Source: an uncultured Acidobacteriota bacterium
GTDB lineage: Bacteria > Acidobacteriota > Polarisedimenticolia > J045
Assembly (NCBI GenBank): GCA_964582785.1
Contig: CAZOTT010000004.1
Span: 1-61,447, forward strand
DNA length: 61,447 bases
Direction of reading: 5' to 3'
Shown: positions 44,006 through 60,161 of the stretch, piece after piece
Numbering within the stretch: position 1 is the stretch's first letter
Layout: the number at the start of each line of letters is the position of its first letter
Notes under the pieces: model-generated
Told to the model about the DNA's origin: nothing
Database searches by the model: none
Seen by the model: only the letters and a program-made list of their open reading frames with translations
Position numbers and translations under genes: made by a program

Positions 44006-44009
<4 letters not shown>

Positions 44010-45957: not shown

Positions 45958-46006
45958 GGTCGGCCTCCCTTTTTCCGGCCCGCCCGGGCCGGGTCCCGGG
46001 GAGAAG

Positions 46007-46474: not shown

Positions 46475-46626
46475 CGGGATCTCCTCCGTTCCGGACGGGC
46501 CCGGACGGGTCCGCGGCCGGCCGGAACCATGGTACCCCGCGGGCCGCGCCGGGCGAAACTGGACGCGCCCCGGGCGGATCCCTAGATTCGCCCCGAGGAA
46601 CGTGGCCCCGGCCATGGAGGAGACGC

Positions 46627-47499
46627 GTGAGCGAAGCGACGACGGACGCGACCCTCCACGAGCTGCGCCTGCTGCTCGAGGAGGAGATCGAGGCCGGGCG
46701 ACTTACGCTGCCGGTGATGCCCGACGTGGCCCTGCGGGCCCGGGAGGCCGCCGCCAGCGCGACGACCAGCGCGAAGGACCTGGCCCAGGTTCTCGAGGCC
46801 GACCCCGCCCTCGCCGCCCGCATCCTGAAGATGGCGAACTCGGCGATGTACGCCGGGCTCTCGGAAATCCGCGACCTCTCCCACGCGATCGTGCGCCTCG
46901 GGGCCGCGATGGTGGTCGCCGTGGTCGTCGGCGCCGCGGGCAAGGAGGTGTTCCGCACGAAAGAACCCTCGTTCCGGGCGCTCCTGCGGGAATCCTGGGA
47001 AGCCTCGGTCCACGCCGCCGCGGTCGCCCGCCTGCTCGCGGACCGGGCCGGCCTGCCCCGGGAGGAAGGACTCCTCGCCGGGCTCCTGCACGCCTCCGGG
47101 GACCCGATCCTCGTCCAGCTCATCGAGGACCTGGCGGCCCAGGGACGGATCGGCCGCCCCCCCGTCGAGACCGTCCGGGAGCTGCTCCGGCTGCTCGCCC
47201 CCCGGGCCGCGGTCCGGCTGCTTTCCAAGTGGGGCCTGCCCGAAGCGATCGTCCGGGCGATCGAGTACCAGCAGGCGCCGGGGGCGGCCCCGGAACCGTT
47301 CCGCAAGGCGGCCGCCCTCGTGACCCTGGCCGCCCTGACCGGGCACGGGTCGGTCGCCGGGGAGCCGGCGGACGAGCTCGCGCACACCCTCGGCTCTCAC
47401 CCGGCGGCCGGGCTGCTCCTTCTCGACGAGGAGGTGGCGCTGGATCTCCTCGAGCGGGCGCGGGAAGAGGGCCGCGAGATCGCCCGGGCGTTCACCTGA
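46627..47499 (+). CDS. HDOD-domain protein (copy 1)
   Basis: 290 aa. HDOD signature LPVMPDVALRAREAA..SAKDLAQVLEADPALAARILKMANSAMYAG..IRDLSHAIVRLG. The HD-equivalent position reads HASGDP. Confidence 0.8.
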   Translation: MSEATTDATLHELRLLLEEEIEAGRLTLPVMPDVALRAREAAASATTSAKDLAQVLEADPALAARILKMANSAMYAGLSEIRDLSHAIVRLGAAMVVAVVVGAAGKEVFRTKEPSFRALLRESWEASVHAAAVARLLADRAGLPREEGLLAGLLHASGDPILVQLIEDLAAQGRIGRPPVETVRELLRLLAPRAAVRLLSKWGLPEAIVRAIEYQQAPGAAPEPFRKAAALVTLAALTGHGSVAGEPADELAHTLGSHPAAGLLLLDEEVALDLLERAREEGREIARAFT

Positions 47500-47614
47500 T
47501 GGACGTTGGACGGGCGTTCAACTTTCGGGCCGACGGCCCTCAATGCGAGAAGGTTCCGGCCGATGAAGGATACCGGGGGGAACGGAAGGCGCCGGGCCCC
47601 GGGCAGGAGACCAG

Positions 47615-48184
47615 GATGCGAGACAGTCGAGGCTACACGCTGACCGAGATCATCGTGGCGGTGGCGGTGATCGCCATCCTCGCCGGCGCGATGACCCCCC
47701 TCATCTTCAAGCAGATCGAACGGTCCCGGGCCGCCCGCGCCCGCCAGGACCTGGACGCCGTCAAGGCCGCCTTCCTCCAGTACCGGGCCGACACCCAGTA
47801 CTGGCCCTGCAGCTGGGACGCCTCCACCAGCAACAACGTCAAGGGCTGGTTCACCGGCTACTACTGCCTCTACGAGGACGACCACCGCCACGGCTGGGAC
47901 GGCCCCTACCTCGACAGGTCCGGCGGCCAGGTCAACGGCCACTACCGCGCCGCCGTCTACCAGGACGGACAGTGGACCGGCGTCGTCGACCCCTGGGGAC
48001 GCCCCTACATGGTCTACGAGGCCAACACCTCCACCTCCGGCGCGGAGTACGGCGCCGTCGTCCTCTACTCCGTCGGCAAGAACGGCCGCGCCGATACCGC
48101 CGACGCCGACCTCCTCCAGGGGAACGCCTCCGGCGACGACGTCGTCGTCCTCGTCACCCGCCGCGCCGCGGACTGACGCCGCGG
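47615..48184 (+). repeat. 570-bp perfect direct repeat, copy A (covers pseudopilin ORF)
   Basis: Base-for-base identical to 49193..49762 by direct comparison. The six-frame peptides are identical in several frames. Confidence 0.95.
47616..48176 (+). CDS. GspG-like major pseudopilin (copy 1)
   Basis: 186 aa. Class III (prepilin) signal MRDSRG/YTLTEIIVAVAVIAILAG with Glu+5. GspG-like blocks LDAVKAAFLQYRADTQYWP and DPWGRPYMVY..SVGKNGRADT..DDV. Confidence 0.85.
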   Translation: MRDSRGYTLTEIIVAVAVIAILAGAMTPLIFKQIERSRAARARQDLDAVKAAFLQYRADTQYWPCSWDASTSNNVKGWFTGYYCLYEDDHRHGWDGPYLDRSGGQVNGHYRAAVYQDGQWTGVVDPWGRPYMVYEANTSTSGAEYGAVVLYSVGKNGRADTADADLLQGNASGDDVVVLVTRRAAD

Positions 48185-48207
48185 ACCCGGAGCACGGAGG
48201 GACCCGG

Positions 48208-49077
48208 ATGCCCAGCGGAATCGCGCACGTCGGCGAGCTGCTCCCGCGCCTGCGGGCGGCGATCGAGGCGGGGGAACTGACGATCCCGGTGATGCCGGAG
48301 ACGGCGATCCGGGTGCGGGAGGCGGCGGACGATCCGGCCACCACCGGCCGGGACATGGCCCGGATCCTCGAGGCGGACCCGGCCCTGGCCGCCCGGGTGC
48401 TGCGCCTCGCGAACTCGGCGCTCTACGCGGGACGGACCGAGATCAAGGACCTGACCCACGCGATCGTCCGCCTGGGGTCCTCCACGGTCGTGTCCCTGGT
48501 CGTCGGCGCCGCGGGCCAGGAGGTCTTCCGGTCCCAGGCGCCGGAAGCGGCGGCGATCCTCCACGACGCCTGGACCCGCTCCATCTACGCGGCGGCGATC
48601 GCCTCCCTTCTCTCGGACCGTTTCTACATTCCGCGGGAGGAGGGACTGATCGCCGGGCTGCTCCACGCCGCCGGCGAACCGATCCTCCTCCAGCTCGTCG
48701 AGGACCTGGTCGAGCGGGGAGACATCGAGCGACCGGATCCCGCGGACCTCAGGGACCTGCTCGCCGAGCTCGCGCCGGAAGCGGGAGTCCGCCTGCTGGA
48801 GGCGTGGGACATCCCCGGCCCGGTGGTCGCCGCGATCGCCCACCAGCGCGACCCGGCGGGGGCCGACGAGGTGGACCGCCACCGGGCGGCGATGGTCGCC
48901 CTGGCGGCCACCGGTGGCGCGGGGTTCCTGGCGGGGAAGCAGCCCCACGAGCTGGTGGGAGAACTGCTCGACCACCGGGGCAACGACATCCTCGGGCTCG
49001 ACCAGCTGACGATCGGGAGCCTCCTCGAAAAGGCGGTGGAGCACGGCCGGGAAATGGCCCGCGCGTTCTCGTCCTGA
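48208..49077 (+). CDS. HDOD-domain protein (copy 2, diverged paralog)
   Basis: 289 aa. IPVMPETAIRVREAA..GRDMARILEADPALAARVLRLANSALYAG..IKDLTHAIVRLG. Roughly half of its residues are identical to copy 1 by eye. Confidence 0.8.
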   Translation: MPSGIAHVGELLPRLRAAIEAGELTIPVMPETAIRVREAADDPATTGRDMARILEADPALAARVLRLANSALYAGRTEIKDLTHAIVRLGSSTVVSLVVGAAGQEVFRSQAPEAAAILHDAWTRSIYAAAIASLLSDRFYIPREEGLIAGLLHAAGEPILLQLVEDLVERGDIERPDPADLRDLLAELAPEAGVRLLEAWDIPGPVVAAIAHQRDPAGADEVDRHRAAMVALAATGGAGFLAGKQPHELVGELLDHRGNDILGLDQLTIGSLLEKAVEHGREMARAFSS

Positions 49078-49192
49078 CCCCTTCTCAAGAACCGGTACGG
49101 GCGTCCGATGAGGCGGGTGGAAGAGCCCGGGCGGGACCCGTGTCTCCCGGTGACCGGCGGAACGCCCGGGACGGACCCGGAGGAGAACGCGA

Positions 49193-49762
49193 GATGCGAG
49201 ACAGTCGAGGCTACACGCTGACCGAGATCATCGTGGCGGTGGCGGTGATCGCCATCCTCGCCGGCGCGATGACCCCCCTCATCTTCAAGCAGATCGAACG
49301 GTCCCGGGCCGCCCGCGCCCGCCAGGACCTGGACGCCGTCAAGGCCGCCTTCCTCCAGTACCGGGCCGACACCCAGTACTGGCCCTGCAGCTGGGACGCC
49401 TCCACCAGCAACAACGTCAAGGGCTGGTTCACCGGCTACTACTGCCTCTACGAGGACGACCACCGCCACGGCTGGGACGGCCCCTACCTCGACAGGTCCG
49501 GCGGCCAGGTCAACGGCCACTACCGCGCCGCCGTCTACCAGGACGGACAGTGGACCGGCGTCGTCGACCCCTGGGGACGCCCCTACATGGTCTACGAGGC
49601 CAACACCTCCACCTCCGGCGCGGAGTACGGCGCCGTCGTCCTCTACTCCGTCGGCAAGAACGGCCGCGCCGATACCGCCGACGCCGACCTCCTCCAGGGG
49701 AACGCCTCCGGCGACGACGTCGTCGTCCTCGTCACCCGCCGCGCCGCGGACTGACGCCGCGG
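49193..49762 (+). repeat. 570-bp perfect direct repeat, copy B
   Basis: Identical to 47615..48184, at an offset of 1578 bp. Confidence 0.95.
49194..49754 (+). CDS. GspG-like major pseudopilin (copy 2, identical)
   Basis: Same 186-aa product as 47616..48176. Confidence 0.85.
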   Translation: MRDSRGYTLTEIIVAVAVIAILAGAMTPLIFKQIERSRAARARQDLDAVKAAFLQYRADTQYWPCSWDASTSNNVKGWFTGYYCLYEDDHRHGWDGPYLDRSGGQVNGHYRAAVYQDGQWTGVVDPWGRPYMVYEANTSTSGAEYGAVVLYSVGKNGRADTADADLLQGNASGDDVVVLVTRRAAD

Positions 49763-49786
49763 GCGGACGCGCCGGGGAAGCGGCCG

Positions 49787-51505
49787 ATGGCGATCCTTCG
49801 CTTCGGGGAGCGGCTGGTCCGCGCCGGGGTGATCACCCCGGAACAGCTCGAGACGCTCCTCGCCGAGCAGAAGGGGACCGACCTCTCGATCGGGCAGCTC
49901 GCCGTCCGGCTCGGGTTCGCCACCCCCGAGCAGATCGCCGAGGTGCTCGCCGAGATGACCGGGCTGCGCTACGAGTCCCTCGCCCGGCGCCGCCCGGACC
50001 CGGAGCTGGCCGGCCTGGTGGACGAGGAGTTCGCCCGGGAGCGCCAGCTCGTCCCGATCGCCCGGGAAGGCGGCCGCCTCACGATCGCCCTCGCCAATCC
50101 CCTCGACGTGGTCTCCATCGACGCCGTCCGGGAACGCACCTCCCTCGACGTGGAGGCGGTCGTCTCTTCCGACCGGGAGATCCGGGCCTTCCAGGACGAG
50201 CTCTACGGCCGGCCGGACGGGACCGACAGGTTCGAGGGGCTGGTCGAGGCGGCCCGCCGGGCCCTGCTCGACCGGGACGAGCGGGGCGGACGGGAGCTGG
50301 GACCGGTCCGGGAGCTGGTGGACGAAATCCTCCGGGAAGCGGTCCGGAGGCGGGCGACCGACGTCCACGTCGAGCCCGAGGAACGGGCGGTCCGGGTCCG
50401 GTACCGGGTCGACGGGATGCTCGTCCCCGCCGTCACCCTGCCCCCGGACCTCCGGGCCACGGTGACCGCCCGGCTGAAGATCCTCGCGAACCTGGACATC
50501 TCCGAGTCCCGCCTGCCCCAGGACGGGCGGATCCGCACCGAGCTCGAGGGCCGCACGATCGACCTGCGGGTCTCGACGATCCCCTGCGTTCACGGGGAGA
50601 ACGTCGTCCTGCGCCTCCTCGACAAGACGAACGTCGTCAAGGGACTCGACCGCCTGGGCATGTCGCCGGGGGACCTCGAACGGTTCCGTGCCCTGCTGGC
50701 CACCCAGGCGGGGATGATCCTCGTGACCGGCCCCACCGGTTCCGGCAAGACGACGACCCTCTACTCCACCATCGCCTCGCTGGACGCCGAGCGGTTCAAG
50801 ATCGCCACCCTCGAGGACCCGGTCGAGTACGAGCTGCCCCTGGTGCGCCAGTCCCAGGTCCACGAGAAGGCGGGATTCACCTTCGCCGCCGGCCTGCGGG
50901 CCCTGCTGCGCCAGGACCCGGACATCATCTTCGTCGGGGAGATGCGCGACGCGGAAACCGCCTCCATCGCGGTCCGGGCGGCTCTCACCGGCCACCTGGT
51001 GTTCAGCACCCTCCACACCACGTCCGCCCTCGCCACCCTGGCCCGCCTCGACCAGATGGGCATTCCCCAGGACCTCGTGATCACGTCGGTCCGCGGGATC
51101 CTCGCCCAGCGCCTGGTGCGGGTCGTCTGCCAGGCGTGCGCGGAGCCGGACGACCCCGACCCGCTGGTCCTGCGGCGCCTGGGCCTCGGGCCGGGCGACC
51201 TGGAGGGCGCGTCCCTGCGCCGGGGCGCCGGCTGCGCCCGCTGCCGCGGAACCGGTTTCCGGGGCCGGACCGGCCTCTACGAGCTGGTCGTGATGACCCC
51301 CGACCTGGCGGACGCCTTCGCGGCCGGCGCCCCCCCCGGTGAGCTGGCCCGCCTCGCGGCGGCGGCCGGCACCCGCTTCCTCCGGGACGACGGCCTCGCC
51401 AAGGCCGGGGCCGGGATCACGACCCTCGAGGAGGTTCTCCGCGCCACGGCCGACGCCCCGGTCCGGGCCGGGGCGCCGGCCGCCCGGGAGACGGCCCATG
51501 CCTGA
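49787..51505 (+). CDS. gspE: type II secretion / type IV pilus assembly ATPase (GspE/PilB family) with MshEN-like N-terminus
   Basis: 572 aa. Walker A GPTGSGKTTT, Asp box, Walker B/His box [12 protein letters not shown], and tetracysteine CQAC..CARC. Confidence 0.93.
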   Translation: MAILRFGERLVRAGVITPEQLETLLAEQKGTDLSIGQLAVRLGFATPEQIAEVLAEMTGLRYESLARRRPDPELAGLVDEEFARERQLVPIAREGGRLTIALANPLDVVSIDAVRERTSLDVEAVVSSDREIRAFQDELYGRPDGTDRFEGLVEAARRALLDRDERGGRELGPVRELVDEILREAVRRRATDVHVEPEERAVRVRYRVDGMLVPAVTLPPDLRATVTARLKILANLDISESRLPQDGRIRTELEGRTIDLRVSTIPCVHGENVVLRLLDKTNVVKGLDRLGMSPGDLERFRALLATQAGMILVTGPTGSGKTTTLYSTIASLDAERFKIATLEDPVEYELPLVRQSQVHEKAGFTFAAGLRALLRQDPDIIFVGEMRDAETASIAVRAALTGHLVFSTLHTTSALATLARLDQMGIPQDLVITSVRGILAQRLVRVVCQACAEPDDPDPLVLRRLGLGPGDLEGASLRRGAGCARCRGTGFRGRTGLYELVVMTPDLADAFAAGAPPGELARLAAAAGTRFLRDDGLAKAGAGITTLEEVLRATADAPVRAGAPAARETAHA

Positions 51506-52706
51506 GTTCGCCTGGCAGGCGCGGTCCCCCGCGGGGGACGTCGTCCGGGGGACCGGGGAGGCGCCCGACCCGGTGGCCCTCGCCCGGTCTCTCCGGGAAC
51601 GGGGCCTCGTCCTGACCCGGGCGCGGTCGACGCACCGGCGGGCCCGCCGGGGACCCTCCCGCCGCACCCGTCTTCGCCGCAAGGAACTGATCCTGCTGAC
51701 CCACCAGCTGGCGGATGCCCTGGGCGCGGGGATTCCGCTGGTCGAAACCCTCGCCGAGTTCGCGCGGACCTGGCCGCACCCCCGCGTCCGGGAAGTGCTC
51801 GACCGGGTGCGGGGAGAGGTCGAAGCGGGCGGCGGATTCGCGGCAGCCCTCGCCCGCTGGCCACGGGCGTTCCCCCCGGCCTGGGTGGAGGCGGTGCGGG
51901 CCGCGGAGGACTCGGGCCGGCTCGACCGGGTGTTCGCCGAGCTGGCCGAGGACCTGGAGTGGCAGGACGAGATGGCGTCCCGGGTGACGTCCGCCCTGCT
52001 CTACCCGGCGATCCTGCTGGTGGCGGTGGCCGGGGTGGCCACCCTCTTCGTGACCGTCCTCTTCCCCAAGCTCCGGCCCCTGTTCGAGGCGACGGGAATC
52101 GAGCTGCCCCTCGTCACCCGGATCCTCCTCGGGATCTCCGACCTGGCCGTCCGCTGGTGGACCCTGCTGCCCCTGGTCCCCGCGCTTCTCGTGCCGGGCA
52201 CGTCCCTCGCCCTGCGGACCGGGCCCGGGCGTCTCGCCTGGCACCGCCTCCTGCTGGCCCTGCCGGGGATCCGGCGGGTGACCCGCCACCTGCTGGCGGC
52301 CCGCTTCGCCCGCACCGCGGCGACCCTGCTCGACGCGGGGACCTCGATGCCCCGTGCCCTGCACGTGGGGGGAGCCGGCGTGGACAACATCCCGTTCACC
52401 CGGGCGATCGAGCGGGCCCGGGAAGACGTCGTCGCCGGCAGCAGCCTGGCCGACGCGCTGGAACGGACGTCGTTCTTCGGCCCCCTGGACGTCCGCATGG
52501 TCTCGGTGGGAGAGCGCTCGGGAACCCTGGTCCGGGCCCTCGGCAACCTGGCCCGCCTCCACGAGCGGCAGGCACGGCGGGCGATCCAGGCGGCCGTCAC
52601 CCTGCTCGAACCGATCCTGCTGGTGCTGATGGCGGCGATCGTCCTCGGCCTCGCCCTTTCCGTCTTCCTGCCGATCTACCAGTCGATCGACGCGATCGGG
52701 AGGTGA
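51498..52706 (+). CDS. gspF: GspF/PilC-family inner-membrane platform protein
   Basis: 402 aa. Two T2SSF repeats (LADALGAGIPLVETL..; LLDAGTSMPRAL..) and three TM segments. 8-nt overlap with gspE. Confidence 0.9.
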   Translation: MPEFAWQARSPAGDVVRGTGEAPDPVALARSLRERGLVLTRARSTHRRARRGPSRRTRLRRKELILLTHQLADALGAGIPLVETLAEFARTWPHPRVREVLDRVRGEVEAGGGFAAALARWPRAFPPAWVEAVRAAEDSGRLDRVFAELAEDLEWQDEMASRVTSALLYPAILLVAVAGVATLFVTVLFPKLRPLFEATGIELPLVTRILLGISDLAVRWWTLLPLVPALLVPGTSLALRTGPGRLAWHRLLLALPGIRRVTRHLLAARFARTAATLLDAGTSMPRALHVGGAGVDNIPFTRAIERAREDVVAGSSLADALERTSFFGPLDVRMVSVGERSGTLVRALGNLARLHERQARRAIQAAVTLLEPILLVLMAAIVLGLALSVFLPIYQSIDAIGR

Positions 52707-52711
52707 GACCG

Positions 52712-53272: not shown

Positions 53273-54171
53273 CCGGCCGGGAGCGGGGTGCGAGTCTCCT
53301 CGAGACGATGGCCTCCGTGGCGATCCTGGTGGTGCTCGCGACGGCGGCCGTTCCGGGCGTCCTCCGGCTGCTCGAGCAGCGCGAGGAGGAGGCGTGCCGG
53401 GCCCGCCTGGACGCCATCGCGGACGGCCTGCGGTCCTTCTGGCGGGATCACGGGAGGTTCCCCACGGCGACGGAAGGGCTCGGCGCCCTCCTCGCGGACC
53501 CGGGAACCGGCCGCTGGCGCGGGCCCTACCTGCGGGCGCCCGCGCCGGGCCTCGACCCCCTGGCCGATCCCCGTGGCCATCGTTTCTCCTACTCGCCGTC
53601 GGGGGACGGCGCCCGGGTGGTCCCTCCCGGGTTCCCCGCCCTCGCCCGGACCGTGCTCCCCGGGGGCGCGGCGTCCGGGCTCGTGGCGCGCGCCGGGGCG
53701 GAACTCGCGCTCGTCGCCGCCGCCGCCGAGCGGTGGCGAGAGACCCGGGGCAGCTGGCCGGGAAGGATCGACGACCTGGCGTCCCTCCTCGGCGCCGACC
53801 TCCTGCGGGATCCCTGGGGACGTCCCTACCGGCTCGACACGTCCCACCTGGTTCCCTGGTCGGTGGGGCCGGACGGCCGCCCGGGGACGGCCGACGACGT
53901 CTACCCGGTCGGGTGGGATCCGGACGCGGTTCCCGCCGCCGAGCCCCCCCCGGACGGGGGAACGGAGGGCGGCGGCGTCACGCCGGCGGACGAGCTGGAC
54001 GCCGCGATCGCCGCCGAACTGTCCGCCTGGCGCCGGGAACTCCGCGCGTACCTCTCCTCCCTGGCGGACCCGGGAACCACCTGGGAGGAGCGCTACGACC
54101 ACCTGGGGCGCGCCGTCTACCACGCCCTGCGCTGGCAGGGCCTGCGGCGTCGCCGGGCGATGGAGGGTTGA
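53269..54171 (+). CDS. pseudopilin paralog A (extended GspG-like)
   Basis: 300 aa. RERG/ASLLETMASVAILVVLA (Glu+5). RDHGRFPT..EGL.ALLADPGTGRWRGPYL and DPWGRPYRL..GPDGRPGTADDV. GTGA overlap upstream. Confidence 0.7.
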   Translation: MTGRERGASLLETMASVAILVVLATAAVPGVLRLLEQREEEACRARLDAIADGLRSFWRDHGRFPTATEGLGALLADPGTGRWRGPYLRAPAPGLDPLADPRGHRFSYSPSGDGARVVPPGFPALARTVLPGGAASGLVARAGAELALVAAAAERWRETRGSWPGRIDDLASLLGADLLRDPWGRPYRLDTSHLVPWSVGPDGRPGTADDVYPVGWDPDAVPAAEPPPDGGTEGGGVTPADELDAAIAAELSAWRRELRAYLSSLADPGTTWEERYDHLGRAVYHALRWQGLRRRRAMEG

Positions 54172-54174
54172 CCG

Positions 54175-55062
54175 GTGGCCGCCCGGGACCAGCGGGGACT
54201 CTCCCTGCTCGAGGCGATGGTCTTCGTCGCCGCGGCGGCAATGCTGGCCGCGGCGGCGATGCCCCTCGCCCTGCGGGTGCTGGAGCTGCGCGAGGAACGC
54301 GCCCTGGACCGGAGGATGGAGGTCCTGGCGCAGGGGCTCCTGGCGTTCTACCGGGACCACGGGCGGCTGCCGACGGAGGACGAGGGACTGGCGGCGCTCC
54401 TCGCGGACCCGGGAACCGGCCGCTGGCGCGGTCCCTACCTGCCGCTGGCCGACCGGGACCTGGTCCTGCGGGGCCCCCGGGGATCGGCGATCACTTGGCA
54501 TCGCGCCGGCCGGGCCGGCGTGCTGGGGAGCGCGGCGTTTCCGGGCGTGACCCGGACCGTGAACCCGGCGCCGGTGGACCTTGCCTTCCGCCGCATCGCG
54601 ATCCGGGAGCTGCGGGCGCTGAAGAGGGCGGCCCTCGCCTACCGGGCCGAGAACGGCGGCCTGCCGGGTTCCGTGGCGGACCTGGTTCCCGCGCGCCTGG
54701 GCGGAGATTTCGCCCTCGACCCCTGGGGCCGGCCCTACGCCATCGACCCGGACGCGGGGGAGATCCGCTCGGCGGGGCCGGACGGGTCAGCGGGAACCGC
54801 CGACGACGTGGTCCTCCCCCTCGGGGTGACGGGGGCGGCGACGGGCTTGTCCGGCATCCCGGCTCCGCCCGCCTTCACGCCGACGAGCCCGGGGGACAGG
54901 GCCCGGGCCGAGGAGGAGCAACGGGCCCTGTTCCGGCGGTACCGGCGGGAAGCGGCGGCCGCCCGGGACGGAACACCGGCGGGCGCCGAGCGGTCCGCCA
55001 CGCTGCGCGGTCTCGCGCTCTACCACCTGTACCGCGCGATCGGGATCCGGAGGGACCGATGA
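54175..55062 (+). CDS. pseudopilin paralog B
   Basis: 295 aa. DQRG/LSLLEAMVFVAAAAML. Same internal motif set as paralog A. Confidence 0.7.
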   Translation: MAARDQRGLSLLEAMVFVAAAAMLAAAAMPLALRVLELREERALDRRMEVLAQGLLAFYRDHGRLPTEDEGLAALLADPGTGRWRGPYLPLADRDLVLRGPRGSAITWHRAGRAGVLGSAAFPGVTRTVNPAPVDLAFRRIAIRELRALKRAALAYRAENGGLPGSVADLVPARLGGDFALDPWGRPYAIDPDAGEIRSAGPDGSAGTADDVVLPLGVTGAATGLSGIPAPPAFTPTSPGDRARAEEEQRALFRRYRREAAAARDGTPAGAERSATLRGLALYHLYRAIGIRRDR

Positions 55063-55721
55063 AACGGGGAAGCCGCCGCCGGGACGGTTTCACCCTGGCG
55101 GAGGCGGTCGCCTCCCTGGCGATCGCCGCGATCCTCGCCGCGGCGGCGGTGCCGGCGGTGCTGCGGCTGATCGAGATCTCCGAGGAACGGACGACCCGGG
55201 CGCGTCTCGAGCGGGTCGAGGAGGGCCTGCTCGCCTTCTACCGGGACCACGGCCGGTTCCCGACCGACGACGAGGGACTCGAGGCGCTGCTCGTCGACCC
55301 GGGAACCGGCTCCTGGCACGGGCCGTACCTGCCCCCGGGAGGAACGGGGGAAAACCCGCTGGAGGATGGCCGGGGCCATCCCCTCGTCTACGCGGGGGGC
55401 CGGACGAGCTGCCGGGTCGTCCCCCCCGGGTTCCCCGACCTGGCCGTCGACGGCAGCGCCGCGCCGGTGGTCCTCGAGTGGGTGGCCCGGGCCCGGGAGG
55501 AGATCGCCCGGTTGAACGATGCGGCCGAGGACTGGCGGGACGTGCACGGCAGCTATCCCGCGTCCGTGGACGACCTGGTCCCCGGCATCCTCGGGGCGGA
55601 CTACGGAACCGACCCGTGGGGCCACCCGTACCGGGTCGATGCCGGGCGGGAAACGTTCTATTCCGCGGGACCGGACGGGACACCGGGGACGGCCGACGAC
55701 GTTCATGCCCCGGGCCTCTGA
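55059..55721 (+). CDS. pseudopilin paralog C
   Basis: 220 aa. RRDG/FTLAEAVASLAIAAILA. Same motif set. ATGA overlap upstream. Confidence 0.75.
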   Translation: MKRGSRRRDGFTLAEAVASLAIAAILAAAAVPAVLRLIEISEERTTRARLERVEEGLLAFYRDHGRFPTDDEGLEALLVDPGTGSWHGPYLPPGGTGENPLEDGRGHPLVYAGGRTSCRVVPPGFPDLAVDGSAAPVVLEWVARAREEIARLNDAAEDWRDVHGSYPASVDDLVPGILGADYGTDPWGHPYRVDAGRETFYSAGPDGTPGTADDVHAPGL

Positions 55722-55748
55722 GCCGATAAGGGAAGAGGAGGGAAAAGG

Positions 55749-57233
55749 GTGTCCCGGAAACGAGCCAGCATCGGGATCGAGATCGGGCCCGAGGCGGTCC
55801 GGGCCGTGGCGCTGGTCGGAAGGAAGCCTCCATTCCGGCTCGCCGGCGCGGAGGACCTGGCGATCGGGGGCCTCGACGAGGTCCCGGCCGCCCTGGCCGA
55901 GGTGCTCGGCAGGCTGGGGGCCAAGGGACCCGCCCGGCTGGTCCTCCTCGGCCTGCACGGCAACCACCTCCGGCTGCGGTTCCCCCCGATGCGCCGGGGC
56001 GAGCTCGCGGAGGCGCTGGACCTGCACCTGGCGCAGGTCCTCGAGGAACCGCCCGCGGGCCGGCTGATCGGCCGGCGGGTGCGCCGCGAGGACGACGGCG
56101 CCCTGGTGATCGACGTGCTGGCGCTGCCCCGGGACCCGGTGGAGACCTGGTGTGCCCAGCTCGCCGCCTCGGGCTTCCCCGTGACCGGCCTCAGAACCCC
56201 CGCGGCCGCCGCGCTGGCGGACGATCCCCGCGCCCCCGGGGAGCGGCGGGGCGGTCTCCTGTGGGTGGACGCGGGCGGAACGAGAACCGTCCTCACGTTT
56301 CTCAAGGGGGACGAGATCGTCCTGGTGCGGGAGATCCCCCGGAAGGAACCGGAGGAGGACGGCCAGCTGGCCCGGATCGAACGGCGCCTGGCCGACTTCC
56401 AGGAGATCGAGCGGTCGATCCTCTACTACCGCCAGCACCACGACCGCGGGGGGGTGAGGACGCTGGTCCTCTGCGGTGATCTCGAGGAGGTGCAGCCCCT
56501 CCACGACCAGATCGCTCCGCCCCTGCGGGAACTGGAGGTCGAGATCCGGCTGGTGGACGCCTGGGCACCGGTCGGTGCCGGGCGGGATGCCCTGTCGCCG
56601 GGGGCCGGGCCGCGGCTCGCCCTCGCCGCCCGCACGGCGGCCTGGGACGGCGGGTCCGGCCTCGGCATCGTGCCCCCCGCCACCGTGGCGTCCCGGCGCC
56701 GGACCCTGCGCCACCGGGCCCTGGCGGGGGCGGCCGCCGCCGCAGTGGCCCTGGCCGGGGGGCTCGCCTGGTGGGAAGCGTCCGCGACGGCCCACCTCCG
56801 GGAACGGCTCGCCCTCGAGCGGGCCCGGCTGGCCTCCCTGCCCGCGCCCCCTACCGGTTCCGACAGGCCCGTGGTGCAGGTCCACCCTCCCCGGGCTGCC
56901 GACTGGTCCGGGCTCCTGTCGGAGATCGGGGTCCTCGCCCGGCCCGGGATCGACTACGAGGAGCTCGAGCTCGTGATCACCGCGGACGGCCCGGTCGTCG
57001 GCCTCGTCGGAACCGCCGGCGGGAAGGACACGCGGGCGACGGGCCTGCTCCTGGCCGGCCTGCACGAGGGGGTCCTGGCCAGCGCATACTCCCGCGGCAT
57101 CCCCCGCATGGCCGCGGAGACCGACCCCGGGGCCCGCCGCGGGGAACGGGTCCGCTACGCCCTCGAGGGAGCCGTGGACGATCGGCCCGCCCGGCAGGCA
57201 GAAGCGGCGGGCCGGGAGCGGGGGCGCCGATGA
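55749..57233 (+). CDS. PilM-like (actin-fold) assembly protein fused to a PilN-like TM/periplasmic segment (GspL-analogous)
   Basis: 494 aa. N-terminal IGIEIGPEAVRAVAL.. and LWVDAGGTRTVLTF (PilM/FtsA-like phosphate motifs). TM helix ALAGAAAAAVALAGGLAWW, then a coiled segment. Confidence 0.65.
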   Translation: MSRKRASIGIEIGPEAVRAVALVGRKPPFRLAGAEDLAIGGLDEVPAALAEVLGRLGAKGPARLVLLGLHGNHLRLRFPPMRRGELAEALDLHLAQVLEEPPAGRLIGRRVRREDDGALVIDVLALPRDPVETWCAQLAASGFPVTGLRTPAAAALADDPRAPGERRGGLLWVDAGGTRTVLTFLKGDEIVLVREIPRKEPEEDGQLARIERRLADFQEIERSILYYRQHHDRGGVRTLVLCGDLEEVQPLHDQIAPPLRELEVEIRLVDAWAPVGAGRDALSPGAGPRLALAARTAAWDGGSGLGIVPPATVASRRRTLRHRALAGAAAAAVALAGGLAWWEASATAHLRERLALERARLASLPAPPTGSDRPVVQVHPPRAADWSGLLSEIGVLARPGIDYEELELVITADGPVVGLVGTAGGKDTRATGLLLAGLHEGVLASAYSRGIPRMAAETDPGARRGERVRYALEGAVDDRPARQAEAAGRERGRR

Positions 57234-57958
57234 GTCCCCCGCGCTTCCTGGCCGCCTGGCTGGCCCTCGCCGCCACCGGGACCCTCGCCCTCGGCATCGT
57301 GGCCGCCCGGGAGGCGGCCGAACGGGCACGGCTGGAGCGGGATCTCGCCGGGACGAGGGAGGAGATCCGCGTGCGCCTCGGCCAGGCGGAGCGCCACCGG
57401 GACCGGGTGGTGGTCCGCGCGCCGTTCGCCACCTGGGCCCACCTGGTCGCCGGCCTCCACGAGGCGGCGGCGACGAGCCGGCTGGACCGGTTCCGGTACG
57501 TCACCCTCGGGGTGGTGCCGGTCACCGACCCCGGTGCGCCCCTCCCTACCGCGGACAAGGGGGATCACGGGGAGACCTCCCGGGACGGGGACACCGGCGG
57601 CGAGAAGGAGGGGGCCCGGGGAGAGCGCCGGGACCGGGCCCCGGCCACCGCCCCCTACCGGGCCATGCGGGCCCGGGTCGAGGGAGGCGGCACCTACGGG
57701 CAGATCGTCTCGTTCGTGCGCGCCCTCGCGGCGGTGGACCCGCCCCTGCAGCTCGACCGGATCGTGCTCCGCGCCGGCCCGGAGGGCCCCACCTTCGAGG
57801 CCACCGTCCACCTGGTAACGGCCCTCCCGGTGGAATCTCCCCGGGTCGTCACCCTCGACCGGCTGCCTGCGGCGGAACCCCCGGGCGACCTCGGGGCGGC
57901 CCTGGCCGGCCTCGTTCCCGCCGGCGCGGCGCCGGCCCCCGCGGAGGTGGCGAGATGA
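57230..57958 (+). CDS. PilO/GspM-like bitopic assembly protein (tentative)
   Basis: 242 aa. N-terminal TM FLAAWLALAATGTLALGIVAA, a coiled coil and a C-terminal ferredoxin-like segment (YGQIVSFVRALAAVDPPLQLDRIVL). ATGA coupling on both sides. Confidence 0.5.
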   Translation: MSPPRFLAAWLALAATGTLALGIVAAREAAERARLERDLAGTREEIRVRLGQAERHRDRVVVRAPFATWAHLVAGLHEAAATSRLDRFRYVTLGVVPVTDPGAPLPTADKGDHGETSRDGDTGGEKEGARGERRDRAPATAPYRAMRARVEGGGTYGQIVSFVRALAAVDPPLQLDRIVLRAGPEGPTFEATVHLVTALPVESPRVVTLDRLPAAEPPGDLGAALAGLVPAGAAPAPAEVAR

Positions 57959-58578
57959 GCCGCGGCAAGGTGTTCACCCTGGTCGGGCTCGCGGTCGCGG
58001 TGCTCGTGTTCGACGCGTGGTTCTTCCTCGGCAACGGGGAGGCTGCCGCCCCGATCGAGGCCGGGACGGAGCCGGGCTCCCCGCGCGGCGGGGAGTTCCA
58101 CCTCGCGGACCTTCTTCCCGGGGCGGAGCCCGCCCCCACCCCCCGGCCGGCGGCGGTGCCCTGGCACGATCCGGCCACGTGGCCCCTGCCGGAACGGCGT
58201 CCGCCCCGGAGGGGACACCCCCGGCCCGGGCTGATGGTCCGGCCCCCGGCACCGGCGGGGGAGGACGGCGCGCGGGCATCCCTTCCGCGGCGGGTTCCCG
58301 TGATTCTCTGGCGGCCCGGGGGAGCCCTCGCCCTGGTCGGGAACCGCCTGGTCCGGGAAGGGGACCGGGTGGGGCCCTGGCTGGTGCGGGAGATCCGCCC
58401 CGATCGCGTCCGCCTCGTCCGGGCGGACGGAGGCGGAAAGCCCCTCGTCCTCCCCCTCGGCGGGCCCCCGCGCCCGCAACCCGCCGCCGCCTCCCGGGCC
58501 GGGGCGGCGGCGCCGGCCCCGGCGCCCTCCCCCGACCCCGCACCACCGGCGGCGCCGGCCCCGGAGGAGGTTCCCTGA
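57955..58578 (+). CDS. GspB/PilP-like small assembly protein (tentative)
   Basis: 207 aa. TM VFTLVGLAVAVLVFDAWFFL, a Pro-rich linker and a C-terminal block ALVGNRLVREGDRVGPWLVREIRPDRVRLV. Confidence 0.45.
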   Translation: MSRGKVFTLVGLAVAVLVFDAWFFLGNGEAAAPIEAGTEPGSPRGGEFHLADLLPGAEPAPTPRPAAVPWHDPATWPLPERRPPRRGHPRPGLMVRPPAPAGEDGARASLPRRVPVILWRPGGALALVGNRLVREGDRVGPWLVREIRPDRVRLVRADGGGKPLVLPLGGPPRPQPAAASRAGAAAPAPAPSPDPAPPAAPAPEEVP

Positions 58579-60095
58579 TGGCTTCCCGGAAGAGAACGCT
58601 TTCCCTCCTGGCGGCGGTCCTCGGCCTGCTCCTGGGCGCCTGCGCCTCGGGCACCGCCCGGGGGCCGGCCCGGCCCCTCGCCCGGGTGCCGTCCGGGATC
58701 CCCGCCCCCGCGGTGCGGGTCGAGGCTCCCGCCCTGCCCTCCCTCGAGGAAACCGTCCTCGAACCCGGAAACGACGGCCTGGAGCGCCTGGACGAGATCT
58801 TCGCCGGTGCCCCGCCGGTGACCCTCAACGTCGAGGATGCCCCGCTGGAGGAGGTTCTCCGGGCCCTCTCCGAGGCGTCCGGCCGGAGCCTTCTCCTGGC
58901 TCCCGGCGTCGAAGCCCGGGTCTCGGCGTCGTTCCACGAGACACCGATCCCGCGGATCCTCCGTGCGCTCCTGGGGGACCGGGGGCTCGGCGTGCGGGCC
59001 GAGGGGAACCTGGTGCGTATCGAGCCCGCTCCCCTGTCCACGGTCGCCTTCCACCTGTCGCTGCCGGACATGGCGGCGGCCGGCAGCGAGAAGGCGGCGG
59101 CCGGCGGTCCCAGCCCGGCCACCTGGAAGACGATCGGGGACGCGGTGAAGCTGGTCCTCTCGTCCCGGGGCGAGGTCCACCTGGACCCCGCCGGGTCCCT
59201 CCTCATCGTCCGGGACGTGCCGGCCCGGATCGAGCGGGTGCGGAAGGTTCTCGAGGAAACGGTCGCCCCCCGCCGGCGGCAGGTGACGATCGAGGCCTCG
59301 ATCCTCGAGGTCGCCCTGGACGACGGCCTGTCCTACGGCATCGACTGGTCCGCCCCCGACCTGCTGGCCACGATCTCCGGCAGCCGGGTGACCGGACGGA
59401 TCGCGACGAACCTGGTCCAGGACCGGGGAGTGGTGACGTTCGCGATCGACTCCCACAAGCTTTCCGCGCTGTTCCGTGCGCTCCGGGACCGGGGCCAGCT
59501 CGAGGTGCTGTCCGCCCCCCGGCTGACCACCCTCAACCGGGTCCCGGCCCGGATCGCGATCACCGAGGAGATCCCCTACTACACCTCCGACTTCAGCGCC
59601 GTCGGCCAGGAACCGATCCAGTCGATCCAGGTCGAGTTCCGGGAGGCGGGGGTCGTCCTCGAGGTGACGCCGATCGTCGCCTCCACGGGGGAGGTCACCC
59701 TGCTCCTCCACCCGAAGGTGACGGAGCTGACCGGCTGGACCCCGGCCCTGCCGAACCTGCCGCCGAACCCGATCCTGGACGTGCGCGAGGTGACGACCAC
59801 GGTCCGCGCCGTGCACGGCCAGTCCGTGGTCCTCGCCGGCCTGATCCGCAACCGCTTCCAGGAGCAGCGCCAGGAGGTTCCCGGGCTGGGACGGGCGCCG
59901 GGGGTCGGGGCGGCGTTCCGCAACCTTTCCCAGTCCGGGGAGCGCACCGAGCTGGTGATCGTGATCACCCCGGTGGTCGCCGACGCGGAATGGCAACGGC
60001 GGGCGCTGAAGAAGGGGCTCGACGACATCGAGGAGCTCCGCCGCCCGTTCACCCCCGGGCCCGTGCGCGGCATCCTCCGGGGGCGCGTGCCCTGA
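58578..60095 (+). CDS. secretin (GspD/PilQ family), lipoprotein form
   Basis: 505 aa. Lipobox LLLGAC. An N-domain LNVEDAPLEEVLRALSEASG, and a secretin core VLSAPRLTTLNRVPARI..GVVLEVTPIV..VVLAGLI..VPGLG..LVIVITP. Confidence 0.88.
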   Translation: MASRKRTLSLLAAVLGLLLGACASGTARGPARPLARVPSGIPAPAVRVEAPALPSLEETVLEPGNDGLERLDEIFAGAPPVTLNVEDAPLEEVLRALSEASGRSLLLAPGVEARVSASFHETPIPRILRALLGDRGLGVRAEGNLVRIEPAPLSTVAFHLSLPDMAAAGSEKAAAGGPSPATWKTIGDAVKLVLSSRGEVHLDPAGSLLIVRDVPARIERVRKVLEETVAPRRRQVTIEASILEVALDDGLSYGIDWSAPDLLATISGSRVTGRIATNLVQDRGVVTFAIDSHKLSALFRALRDRGQLEVLSAPRLTTLNRVPARIAITEEIPYYTSDFSAVGQEPIQSIQVEFREAGVVLEVTPIVASTGEVTLLLHPKVTELTGWTPALPNLPPNPILDVREVTTTVRAVHGQSVVLAGLIRNRFQEQRQEVPGLGRAPGVGAAFRNLSQSGERTELVIVITPVVADAEWQRRALKKGLDDIEELRRPFTPGPVRGILRGRVP

Positions 60096-60161
60096 CCCCG
60101 CCCGTGGTGTAGCGAAGCTTCCAGGGGGCGTGCCCCGGCGCCGAGGGGAGGAGGCCCGCGC

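Follow-up and report, generated by a model that had tools for sequence, protein, structure and literature searches.

Fourteen genes reading in the same direction at positions 46627-60095 (+ strand) of the window, the whole stretch of 61,447 nucleotides that was analysed, are best explained as the operon of a type IV filament machine from an uncultured Acidobacteriota lineage, in which features of the type II secretion system (T2SS) and of type IV pili (T4P) are mixed. The conserved trait of this operon is an HDOD gene in first position, not an HDOD gene 5' of a pilin gene. Judging from sequence, there is about an even chance that the HDOD proteins gate the filament machine as non-catalytic cytoplasmic regulators, acting on the MshEN-type motor or on the PilM platform. 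The genes and elements of the operon are:

46627-47499, + strand: HDOD1, 290 aa, cytoplasmic, at the head of the operon (Pfam PF08668, E 1.3e-41, model positions 1-196 of 196)
47539-47565, + strand: intergenic motif CTCAAT-N15-CCGATG, 50 nt 5' of the ATG of pilin copy 1
47616-48176, + strand: major GspG-like pilin, copy 1, 186 aa (Pfam N_methyl and T2SSG)
48208-49077, + strand: HDOD2, 289-aa paralogue of HDOD1 (PF08668, E 2.3e-39)
49084-49110, + strand: second copy of the motif, CTCAAG-N15-CCGATG, 83 nt 5' of the ATG of pilin copy 2
49194-49754, + strand: major GspG-like pilin, copy 2, same DNA as copy 1
49787-51505, + strand: assembly ATPase of PilB/GspE/MshE type, 572 aa (Pfam T2SSE 1e-125, MshEN 3e-20)
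51498-52706, + strand: GspF-like inner-membrane platform, 402 aa (Pfam T2SSF, two domains, E 1.8e-51)
52712-53272, + strand: GspG-like pilin 3, 186 aa (Pfam T2SSG 6.7e-13 and N_methyl; leader G|YTLSE)
53269-54171, + strand: GspG-like pilin 4, 300 aa, with a long C-terminal extension (T2SSG 3.5e-13; leader G|ASLLE)
54175-55062, + strand: GspG-like pilin 5, 295 aa (T2SSG 7.2e-11; leader G|LSLLE)
55059-55721, + strand: GspG-like pilin 6, 220 aa (T2SSG 1.5e-14, N_methyl 1.8e-5; leader G|FTLAE)
55749-57233, + strand: PilM-PilN fusion, 494 aa (AF2 and Foldseek)
57230-57958, + strand: PilO/GspM-like bitopic protein, 242 aa (AF2 core pLDDT 85-93)
57955-58578, + strand: small bitopic protein with a Pro-rich linker, 207 aa
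58578-60095, + strand: short lipoprotein secretin, 505 aa (Pfam Secretin 3.6e-38; lipobox LLGAC)

The gene models, for which a GC3 frame plot and the translations were used, mostly overlap. The original prediction spoke of 15 genes, but its own list likewise totals 14, while the overlaps it described are all present in the coordinates: 8 nt between GspE and GspF (51498-51505), GTGA at 53269, ATGA at 55059, 57230 and 57955, and a TGATG junction at 58578. Larger gaps are limited to HDOD-to-pilin (116 nt in each of the two cassettes), pilin-to-HDOD2 (31 nt), pilin-to-GspE (32 nt) and pilin 6-to-PilM-PilN (27 nt), and tight translational coupling is observed from the ATPase gene through the secretin gene. 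HDOD1 starts with GTG, preceded by the ribosome-binding site GGAGGAG, and pilin 3 has an alternative GTG start at 52703 that would overlap the GspF stop codon.

The assignment to the type IV filament superfamily is borne out by Pfam matches to T2SSG, T2SSE with MshEN, T2SSF and Secretin, and the closest relatives of the locus are found in Acidobacteriota MAGs. All six pilins match T2SSG and present G-1/E+5 prepilin N-termini, with N_methyl scores ranging from over the cut-off to weak. As had been predicted, the locus contains no PDZ-type GspC and no recognisable GspH/I/J/K, the six pilins matching the GspG model alone. Neither an A24 prepilin peptidase nor a PilT retraction ATPase was found among the approximately 50 gene models of the 61-kb window; the predicted absence of both thus stands for the window and does not reach beyond it.

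Regarding the motor, the ATPase carries an intact N-terminal MshEN c-di-GMP-binding motif (NCBIfam NF053729, 58.4 bits against a cut-off of 38) and a tetracysteine motif. Since this motif exceeds its cut-off, the earlier suggestion of a signal-regulated machine is plausible. The ATPase reached neither the PilB (541, cut-off 676) nor the GspE (511, cut-off 630) model of NCBIfam, and the platform protein scored 304 bits as GspF versus 211 bits as PilC, both under the cut-off.

The last three inner-membrane genes (55749-58578) gave no Pfam match, and for the first two of them the assignment relies on structure models. The AF2 model of the PilM-PilN protein (pLDDT 78) is most similar in Foldseek to PilM 5eou (E 4.9e-16), followed by FtsA and by the cytoplasmic domains of GspL/EpsL; the predicted fusion is supported because, after this cytoplasmic, actin-like PilM domain, the modelled chain continues into a long transmembrane (TM) helix and ends in an alpha/beta domain on the periplasmic side. 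This protein is the functional analogue of GspL and the marker protein of the system, and a search of 1.84e9 proteins at E<=1e-30 gave only 13 clusters of its family. The model of the following protein agrees with the PilO-like call, with matches to PilO (3jc8_Oa, E 7e-4; 2rjz_A, TMt 0.56) and Amuc_1100. On the other hand, the label GspB/PilP-like for the small bitopic protein is unproven: its sole NCBIfam match is a weak one to GspC_delta (E 0.017, residues 130-197). It is possibly PilP/GspC-like, and a gene for it also lies between the PilO-like and secretin genes in the related loci L008, L093, L094, L176 and L177. The secretin scored 171 bits as PilQ, 162 as GspD and 157 as MshL in NCBIfam, all under the cut-off.

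The major pilin presents an MRDSRG|YTLTE prepilin leader, two cysteines and a DPWGRPY motif, and reaches 56.9 bits with NCBIfam GspG (copy 1), under the cut-off of 88.85; its orthologues in seven related loci are 43-77% identical. The two copies, described before as identical pilins, match fully at both the protein and the DNA level, within a 570-nt block (47615-48184 = 49193-49762) that covers both genes. Within L001 and within L008 the pilin paralogues share just 81% DNA identity. The copies could have been homogenised by gene conversion, and having two of them might raise the pilin dosage. The motif upstream of both copies has only these two exact matches in the window and likewise stands ahead of the major pilin gene in L001, L006, L008, L013, L093, L095 and others, being a putative promoter or operator of the pilin.

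Both HDOD calls were verified by profile HMM, clearing the PF08668 cut-off (22.9 bits) over the full-length model. HDOD1 and HDOD2 share 53% protein identity, and HDOD2 is the more diverged copy (its identity to single-copy HDODs is 37-41%, that of HDOD1 44-49%). Set against the di-iron HDOD 3HC1, the HDODs of the window's clade retain a single histidine. In HDOD1 this is the one from the HD pair (LLHAS), the remaining Fe ligands being gone, and the clade as a whole lacks the first His and has other residues in place of the Asp of HD, the third His and the HH pair. Because almost all metal ligands are lost, these proteins look like non-catalytic adaptor or regulator subunits. There is a precedent in SadB, a protein adaptor whose HDOD likewise has one His (PMC12075610); this HDOD did not bind c-di-GMP (PMC12075610), which leaves a c-di-GMP connection via the HDOD itself conjectural. 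HDOD proteins had been said to be foreign to described T2SS and T4P machines, and indeed a literature search found no published link of HDOD to pili or type II secretion.

Concerning the related loci, nine lineages were sampled, and in seven of them, reaching down to some 38% PilM-PilN identity, the operon starts with HDOD, so that the prediction fares well as to the retention of HDOD. Adjacency of HDOD and pilin, which had been put forward as the characteristic feature, is more restricted. L001, L008 and L009 have two HDOD-pilin cassettes and L006, L093 and L175 only one, the double cassette being confined to the window's close relatives; in L094 and L178 the PilM-PilN gene follows HDOD directly. 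Each HDOD could be a dedicated partner of the next pilin, as a pilin-specific expression factor or a cytoplasmic prepilin chaperone or gatekeeper, and the duplicated unit is indeed HDOD plus pilin, adjoining in the window, L001, L006, L008, L093 and L175. This proposal, which is close to the HDOD-pseudopilin cassette first suggested, is improbable. The HDODs of L094 and L178 have no neighbouring pilin, neither a DNA-binding domain nor a signal peptide nor a TM segment was seen in HDOD by sequence or Pfam, and the pilin genes have a conserved upstream motif of their own. Moreover, two identical pilins stand behind 53%-identical HDODs, and therefore pairwise co-evolution is absent.

L176 and L177, more distant versions of the same machine, do without HDOD, so HDOD is a conserved accessory and not a core part. 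These two versions are also what would be expected if HDOD were an unrelated signalling gene placed upstream by chance and kept by inherited synteny in one small clade. All instances are MAG or metagenome contigs of one narrow clade (13 clusters at 50% identity), many loci share a methyltransferase-M28 flank, the sister HDODs P0016 and P0017 lie behind histidine-kinase genes without pilus genes, and part of the synteny is shared ancestry. Nevertheless, chance placement seems quite unlikely, considering that the adjacency persists with different flanks in L093 and L178 and outlasts rearrangements that removed pilin, E and F genes (L094, L178), that HDOD and machine are always on the same strand at short spacing, and that HDOD or HD-GYP is linked independently to MshEN-type ATPases in other phyla, once by fusion.

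In other taxa, HDOD genes lie 0-55 nt 3' of orphan MshEN-T2SSE ATPases (L011, L012, L101, L110, L142, L170, and the cut contigs L104 and L127). L101 presents the order MshEN-ATPase, HDOD, MshEN-REC, and P0029 is an MshEN-HDOD fusion protein; the searches gave no characterisation of these orphan pairs or of P0029. These HDODs are only 21-29% identical to those of the window, and in L011, L101 and L142 the HD, H and HH residues are retained, so they may work differently and the analogy is weakened. Together with the place of HDOD within the HD superfamily and with GAF-HD-GYP phosphodiesterase genes directly 5' of GspE homologues in four Planctomycetota MAGs (Phycisphaeraceae, Tepidisphaerales and relatives), they could suggest that the window's HDODs are active metal-dependent phosphohydrolases, for instance local c-di-GMP/pGpG phosphodiesterases lowering the ligand at the MshEN motor. 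With the ligand losses described above and a pocket resembling the one-His pocket of the non-catalytic SadB (PMC12075610), this is very hard to credit. The same GAF-HD-GYP genes also speak for a link to the motor, as do MshEN-HD-GYP fusions, which are already on record (PMC5013675).

The genome comparisons tie HDOD to the MshEN-type ATPase or to the cytoplasmic platform more than to the pilin. In the preferred reading of a non-catalytic regulator, the HDODs would contact the machine from the cytoplasm, most likely through the MshEN N-domain of its ATPase, otherwise through the PilM-like domain, and would gate filament assembly or secretion on a cellular signal, probably connected to c-di-GMP; two diverged paralogues might bring two inputs into one machine. 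The partner could be PilM or something else because L094, L175 and L178 have no ATPase gene in the locus. An action through the PilM-like domain instead of the ATPase, such as motor recruitment or machine polarity, would suit these loci, where PilM-PilN comes directly after HDOD (L094, L178) or after HDOD and pilin (L175), as well as the co-occurrence of HDOD with the system-specific PilM-PilN family. It is a possible but less probable route, as the independent HDOD associations in other phyla involve MshEN-ATPases or MshEN domains, never PilM, and the short loci may be split operons with the ATPase encoded elsewhere in the genome.

Outside the operon, one neighbouring gene should be mentioned:

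46007-46474, - strand: divergently transcribed ORF with a signal peptide, 155 aa

It has no Pfam or NCBIfam match. Orthologous ORFs of 151-155 aa adjoin the HDOD gene in most relatives (L001, L006, L008, L094 and L175), but not in L093, and its membership of the filament system is uncertain. The idea that nearby exoproteins are cargo found no support: no signal peptide was found in the flanking M28, the M36, tricorn and BNR genes are 7-29 kb away from the operon, and the neighbour genes of the more distant relatives L093 and L178 differ from those of the window.

Among known systems, the proteobacterial T2SS (Gsp/Eps/Xcp) shares with the locus GspG-type pseudopilins with a DPWG.PY motif, a platform scoring best as GspF, the ATPase tetracysteine motif, a GspM/PilO-like partner, a secretin, a tightly coupled operon and no retraction ATPase in the locus. 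GspL, like the PilM-PilN protein, is a single chain running from an actin-like cytoplasmic domain through a TM segment to a periplasmic domain. However, the ATPase of the locus has an MshEN N-domain in place of N1E, the actin-like domain of the PilM-PilN protein is a full-size PilM fold and not the reduced GspL fold, the T2SS components GspH/I/J/K have no recognisable counterpart, a PDZ-type GspC is absent, and N0-N3 domains are not detectable in the short lipoprotein secretin. The locus also has a duplicated major pilin with its own upstream element and HDOD genes, and its proteins reach no NCBIfam equivalog cut-off.

The MSHA pilus of Vibrio cholerae has a PilM-PilN-like fusion, MshI, whose gene comes before PilO/PilP-like genes and a secretin gene. 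The secretin MshL is, as in the locus, a lipoprotein of similar size. The extension ATPase MshE likewise carries an N-terminal MshEN c-di-GMP motif (PMC5013675, PMC4624772, PMC7096442). Nevertheless, the gene order of the locus differs, its pilins are GspG-like and not MshA/B/C/D-like, it has no MshM or MshN genes, its secretin misses the MshL equivalog (157 vs 250 bits), and MSHA has no HDOD component.

PilZ-FimX of Xanthomonas and Pseudomonas, reviewed with other protein cofactors of PilB (PMC11656802), resembles the role proposed for HDOD: FimX, with degenerate GGDEF/EAL second-messenger domains, is a cytoplasmic protein that binds to the extension ATPase and permits assembly. The review does not list HDOD as a PilB cofactor; the cofactor family of the locus would be HDOD, and the link is drawn from gene neighbourhood and one fusion. 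SadB of Pseudomonas, a YbaK-HDOD protein that acts as the adaptor in AmrZ proteolysis when cells change to a surface-bound life (PMC12075610), has the same degenerate pocket, but it carries an extra YbaK domain absent from the stand-alone HDODs of the window, targets a transcription factor and has no pilus or secretion genes encoded alongside it. The orphan pairs of MshEN-T2SSE ATPase and HDOD (L011, L101, L142 and others) differ in having HDOD 3' of the ATPase, with no pilins, platform or secretin nearby; what they and the fusion P0029 have in common with the window is the pairing of HDOD and MshEN, and such an HDOD-motor pairing would give a testable role to a poorly understood domain.

At a G+C content of about 74%, raw ORF lists cannot be relied on for the window. 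Gene models were built from a third-position GC frame plot, stop-to-stop translations and gene calling by a simple coding score. Between 46627 and 60095 these models give 14 co-directional genes on the + strand, one fewer than the fifteen of the original prediction, whose own gene list also sums to 14. Starting with the ATPase gene (49787-51505), neighbouring genes overlap or nearly abut, and every predicted type of overlap (ATGA, GTGA, TGATG and 8 nt) is present in the coordinates of the models:

51498-51505, + strand, gene overlap of 8 nt
53269, + strand, GTGA overlap
55059, + strand, ATGA overlap
57230, + strand, ATGA overlap
57955, + strand, ATGA overlap
58578, + strand, TGATG overlap

Bigger gaps are confined to the surroundings of the two HDOD-pilin cassettes, where the HDOD-to-pilin gap is 116 nt in both cases, and to the 27 nt before the gene of the PilM-PilN fusion (PilMN, 55749-57233). 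The first HDOD gene (HDOD1, 46627-47499) has a GTG start with a Shine-Dalgarno sequence, GGAGGAG, upstream. The genes encode a type IV filament machine that is complete and translationally coupled, with degenerate cytoplasmic HDOD proteins at its head.

Very few functions have been assigned to HDOD, a widespread domain associated with signalling, and the Pseudomonas YbaK-HDOD adaptor SadB is the main characterised case. HDOD1 and HDOD2 (48208-49077) were confirmed as HDOD proteins by full-length matches to Pfam PF08668 (model 1-196/196; 142.7 and 135.3 bits, E 1.3e-41 and 2.3e-39, cut-off 22.9), and they match the HDOD structures 3i7a, 3m1t, 3mem, 3hc1, 9qzk and 1vqr by sequence. Neither protein has a signal peptide, a TM segment or a domain for DNA binding. 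In the Geobacter HDOD structure 3HC1, two iron ions are held by five His and one Asp (PMC12075610). Compared with 3HC1, the HDODs of the window retain a single ligand, the His of the 'HD' pair (LLHAS, LLHAA): AHS has changed to EAS/TRS, HD to HA, the third His is gone and HH is replaced by QQ/QR. Pfam gave no GYP motif and no HD_5 match in either protein. A catalytic metal-dependent HD/HD-GYP phosphohydrolase was considered and rejected, since the H...HD...H...HH...D ligands are not kept, and an active phosphodiesterase is nearly excluded by the same loss of metal ligands. The whole machine-linked HDOD clade is degenerate (HD to HA, HG, HT or NG; HH to xQ). The degenerate one-His pocket resembles that of SadB, in which the pocket is dispensable and the protein works as an adaptor (PMC12075610).

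Regarding relatives of these proteins, the closest HDODs outside pilus loci (compared loci L003, 4989-8032, and L010, 7818-10858) are each preceded by a hybrid histidine kinase/receiver gene whose stop codon overlaps the HDOD start codon. As in the window (17744-21424), large Sortilin/BNR proteins are encoded in the vicinity. The sister HDODs P0016 and P0017 (the latter with a full-length identity of about 42%) lie behind hybrid histidine-kinase genes and are not accompanied by pilus genes; the subfamily is therefore a signalling module recruited to different outputs.

The two major pilin genes (47616-48176 and 49194-49754) had been predicted to be identical, and they are so at the DNA level over a 570-nt block (47615-48184 = 49193-49762) which extends from one base 5' of the ATG to eight bases 3' of the stop codon. 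HDOD1 and HDOD2 share about 70% DNA and 53% protein identity. The pilin paralogues of two close relatives, L001 and L008, show only 81% DNA identity, and those of L095 differ too, so the duplication is older than these lineages. The identical copies of the window could be due to recent gene conversion or, less likely, to assembly collapse. As judged by protein identity, HDOD2 is the derived copy, because it is less similar to the single-copy HDODs found in other lineages (37-41%) than HDOD1 is (44-49%).

Each HDOD-pilin spacer carries one copy of the element CTCAAK-N15-CCGAWR, and these are its only exact matches in the window:

47539-47565, + strand, copy 1, HDOD1-pilin spacer, 50 nt upstream of the pilin start
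49084-49110, + strand, copy 2, HDOD2-pilin spacer, 83 nt upstream of the pilin start

Across lineages the element stands 50-83 nt 5' of every major pilin gene of this system; it precedes the major pilin in L001, L002, L006, L007, L008, L013, L014, L093, L095 and L097 (positions 3626/5205 in L001, 11090 in L006, 3762 and 9957 in L093, 1454 in L095), and in L093 it is additionally found 5' of the PilMN gene. It is unlike the sigma-70 or sigma-54 consensus and may be a candidate lineage-specific promoter or operator for the abundant subunit. Neither sigma-70 promoters nor intrinsic terminators rose above shuffled background within the locus. A riboswitch (c-di-GMP or other) 5' of the pilins was discarded, as the sole match in an Rfam E-value scan of 45900-60400 was to a snoRNA and due to chance. 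A GAF + sigma-54 activator (NorR/NifA-like) is encoded 2.6 kb upstream of the locus (41562/42516-44009, + strand), and from gene sizes and order it appears absent from the corresponding position in L002. A sigma-54 promoter, considered on account of this activator, was also rejected, with no consensus within the locus.

Concerning distribution, the ATPase shows 88-90% identity to genes of 'Acidobacteriota bacterium' MAGs, and the next best match among 185,579 species genomes is at 47%. The PilMN family comprised 7 clusters by word-index search and 13 clusters at E<=1e-30 by exhaustive profile search of 1.84 billion representatives, where scores fall from 263 to 81 bits after the 13 clusters. 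By these profile scores, PilMN defines a small family. Nine lineages were compared, every instance being a MAG or metagenome contig and all of them belonging to a narrow clade, with the following gene orders (E, ATPase; F, GspF-like platform; x, small protein):

The window, L001/L009, L008 and L095: HDOD-pilin-HDOD-pilin-E-F-4 pilins-PilMN-PilO-x-secretin
L006: HDOD-pilin-ATPase, where the contig ends
L093: HDOD-pilin-E-F-4 pilins-PilMN-PilO-x-secretin, with a differing flank (NosD)
L175: HDOD-pilin-PilMN-PilO-x
L094: HDOD-PilMN-PilO-x-secretin
L178: HDOD-PilMN-PilO-x
P0008 and P0046 (compared proteins): HDOD and PilMN on one 8.9-kb contig
L176 and L177: pilin-E-F-pilins-PilMN-PilO-x-secretin-(REC-CheB methylesterase), HDOD absent

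The HDOD is thus the conserved first gene in seven of the nine lineages; the predicted adjacency to a pilin gene is not constant (L094, L178). A pilin-specific role of the HDOD is a rival explanation that these two loci count against, and mere inherited synteny is another one for its presence at the locus. The HDOD behaves as an accessory component, presumably a regulatory one, because the core machine can exist without it, as in L176 and L177. In these two loci the REC-CheB methylesterase gene lies directly 3' of the secretin gene (L176 10230-11252, L177 14185-15225) and may be an alternative regulatory input. L094, L175 and L178 are shortened: all three keep the HDOD, PilMN, the PilO-like protein and the small protein, L175 also the pilin, and none has ATPase, platform or minor pilin genes; the secretin, too, is missing from L175 and L178. 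They may represent split operons or decaying systems. On the other side of the HDOD gene there is a divergent block on the - strand, consisting of a 155-aa secreted ORF without known domain (46007-46474), an M28 peptidase (44827-45957) and a class I methyltransferase (44006-44743). This block adjoins the HDOD gene in L001, L006, L008 and L175, is present without M28 in L094 and is absent in L093 and L178.

Profile HMMs agreed with the T2SSG, T2SSE and Secretin calls. All six pilin-like proteins have a G-1/E+5 prepilin N-terminus and match Pfam T2SSG, with N_methyl ranging from above cut-off to weak, and they share the GspG-like motifs DPWG.PY ... G.DG..(G)T.DD(V/I). In NCBIfam they resemble GspG alone, at most 66 bits against a cut-off of 89. 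No significant signal for the minor pseudopilins GspH/I/J/K was obtained for any pilin with Pfam or NCBIfam. The four extra pilins are significant only to the GspG and T2SSG models, in line with the predicted lack of GspH/I/J/K, and their GspH, GspI and GspJ matches (E >= 0.007) cover the N-terminal helix only. The platform is nearer GspF (304 bits, cut-off 424) than PilC (211 bits). The secretin (58578-60095) is a 505-aa lipoprotein with the lipobox LLGAC, has no Pfam match to the AMIN domain and scores about equally, below threshold, on PilQ (171, cut-off 284), GspD (162, cut-off 351) and MshL (157, cut-off 250).

Structure prediction was needed for PilMN, the PilO-like protein and the small protein encoded at 57955-58578, since Pfam at E<=5 and PDB sequence searches yielded nothing usable for them. 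The AlphaFold2 model of PilMN (pLDDT 78) has PilM as its best match (5eou, E 4.9e-16, TMt 0.62), followed by FtsA and then the GspL/EpsL cytoplasmic domains, and its PilM-like part continues into a long TM helix and then, at the C-terminus, an alpha/beta domain. This combination supports a predicted PilM-PilN fusion that would be a functional analogue of GspL. The model of the 57230-57958 product (core pLDDT 85-93) matches PilO (3jc8_Oa, E 7e-4; 2rjz_A, TMt 0.56, rmsd 2.6 Å) as well as the PilO-like protein Amuc_1100. The fusion and PilO-like calls of the original prediction are upheld by predicted structures and not by sequence matches; the PilM-fold fusion would take the GspL role and the PilO-fold protein that of GspM. 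The small protein has a single weak GspC_delta match (E 0.017) and no PDZ domain, and its GspC/PilP-type label is tentative. Neither an A24 prepilin peptidase nor an ATPase of the PilT type is encoded within the 61-kb window, which extends to the whole window an absence predicted for the locus.

Two readings of the machine's function are considered. The GspG-like subunits, the GspF-like platform and the lack of a PilT gene nearby favour T2SS-like secretion, and the duplication of the 186-aa major subunit, with its own conserved upstream element, favours an abundant surface fibre. The exoproteins proposed as cargo found no support: the adjacent M28 has no signal peptide, and the M36, tricorn and BNR/sortilin genes are 7-29 kb distant and are not conserved neighbours in L093, L176, L177 and L178.

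The ATPase carries MshEN (Pfam 3.3e-20) and T2SSE domains and falls short of both NCBIfam cut-offs, PilB (541, cut-off 676) and GspE (511, cut-off 630). It passes the NCBIfam c-di-GMP-motif model NF053729 over residues 5-56 (58.4 bits versus a cut-off of 38); its stretch RFGERLVRAGVITPEQLETLLAEQ matches the pattern RLGxxLLxxGLLxxxxLxxxLxxQ, and residues 5-28 agree with the published 24-residue MshEN motif (PMC5013675). By this N-terminal tandem 24-residue motif, it is an MshEN-type ATPase and a predicted c-di-GMP receptor.

Overall, the HDODs could be non-catalytic regulators which would dock at the machine's cytoplasmic face, where they would gate filament assembly or secretion, the two diverged paralogues providing two inputs; we give this picture an even chance. 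The likeliest partner would be the MshEN N-domain of the ATPase, a choice held with less confidence than the picture as a whole. The PilM-like domain of PilMN is an alternative partner, because the HDOD gene adjoins that of PilMN in L094 and L178.

Docking on the MshEN domain was also considered in the light of HDOD genes elsewhere. A metagenome scan with the HDOD-clade alignment covered 80 loci, only 51 of them with >=1.5 kb of upstream sequence, and a T2SSE-type ATPase gene lay <=700 nt from the HDOD gene in 8/80, a raw count that ignores kinship. Two of the eight, L095 and L097, are the window's own system; the other six (L101, L104, L110, L127, L142 and L170) have an orphan MshEN-T2SSE ATPase with the HDOD gene 0-55 nt downstream. 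The same pair occurs in L011 and L012, probably Burkholderiales from their TctC-rich gene content (modules at 8058-10846 in L011/L012, 4130-7885 in L101 and 7991-10831 in L142). The pairs recur in unrelated taxa, and no pilins, platform or secretin were found near them. In L101 the order is MshEN-ATPase, HDOD, MshEN-REC, and in the compared protein P0029 (473 aa, from a 2.4-kb Logan contig) MshEN (residues 76-160) is fused to HDOD (residues 218-409). The ATPase-paired HDODs are 21-29% identical to those of the window and have retained their HD, H and HH residues, and the analogy is suggestive, not proof.

Moreover, a GspE-anchored survey of 80 loci gave no HDOD neighbour beyond the 88-90% identical Acidobacteriota MAGs (others <=47%). 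Its sole related finding was a GAF-HD_5 (HD-GYP-type) gene directly 5' of a GspE homologue (41-44% identity) in four Planctomycetota MAGs (Phycisphaeraceae, Tepidisphaeraceae, Tepidisphaerales and one unclassified):

L019, 7910-9613, GAF-HD-GYP upstream of GspE homologue
L020, 7829-9574, GAF-HD-GYP upstream of GspE homologue
L024, GAF-HD-GYP upstream of GspE homologue
L025, GAF-HD-GYP upstream of GspE homologue

MshEN fusions to HD-GYP are on record (PMC5013675). A 311-kb metagenome contig with 39% G+C (L117, 3039-11730) encodes GspD-GspE(N1E)-GspF-GspG, a GCV_T/YgfZ-like gene, three tandem HDODs (59-67% identity among themselves) and CtaA; it is weak evidence because the ATPase is of N1E type and an unrelated gene lies between.

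How PilB/GspE-type motors are regulated is under active study; HDOD is absent from the list of their cofactors (c-di-GMP, PilZ, FimX, CpiA, phage peptides), and a 2024 review of PilB cofactors does not mention it (PMC11656802). No paper with both 'HDOD' and 'pilin' was found in the searchable literature, and the sole top-ranked paper naming HDOD with T2SS or pilus terms does so in an unrelated passage, which agrees with the earlier view that HDOD is no part of described T2SS or T4P machines. Taken together with the MshEN-HDOD fusion and the orphan ATPase-HDOD pairs, the locus leads to a testable prediction, namely that HDOD binds and regulates MshEN-type motors, and this suggested HDOD function is the main interest for specialists in pili, T2SS and c-di-GMP. 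A broader reading of the same sequence associations, which we consider rather unlikely, is that HDODs generally would serve as partner modules for c-di-GMP receptor domains of the MshEN type, a stand-alone HDOD docking on MshEN and setting whether c-di-GMP switches the motor on. If true, this Acidobacteriota operon would be the first case of HDOD built into a complete filament/secretion machine, its two diverged paralogues would be alternative licensing factors, and HDOD partners would be the MshEN N-domains of PilB/GspE-type motors or other MshEN proteins.

Compared with a canonical T2SS, the equivalog cut-offs for GspE, GspF, GspG and GspD are all missed, and no GspH-K, PDZ-type GspC or N1E domain was recognised in the locus. 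With respect to the type IVa pilus, the PilB and PilQ family scores are missed and there are no separate PilM and PilN genes, these being fused, and no PilQ-type secretin. As for the MSHA pilus, the MshL cut-off is missed, no AAA (MshM) or TPR (MshN) gene is found in the locus and the pilins are GspG-like, not MshA-type. Every curated NCBIfam equivalog threshold for T2SS, T4aP and MSHA components is thus missed by the locus. It belongs to the type IV filament superfamily, as it combines G-1/E+5 prepilins with an ATPase of the PilB/GspE family and a GspF/PilC platform, and the description that suits it best is a T2SS/T4P hybrid variant whose motor is of the MshE type. This small, sharply delimited Acidobacteriota machine family, which combines T2SS and T4P parts with GspG-like pilins only, a PilM-PilN fusion and a lipoprotein secretin, is relevant to the classification of type IV filament machines and to surface contact or protein export by these abundant soil and sediment bacteria.
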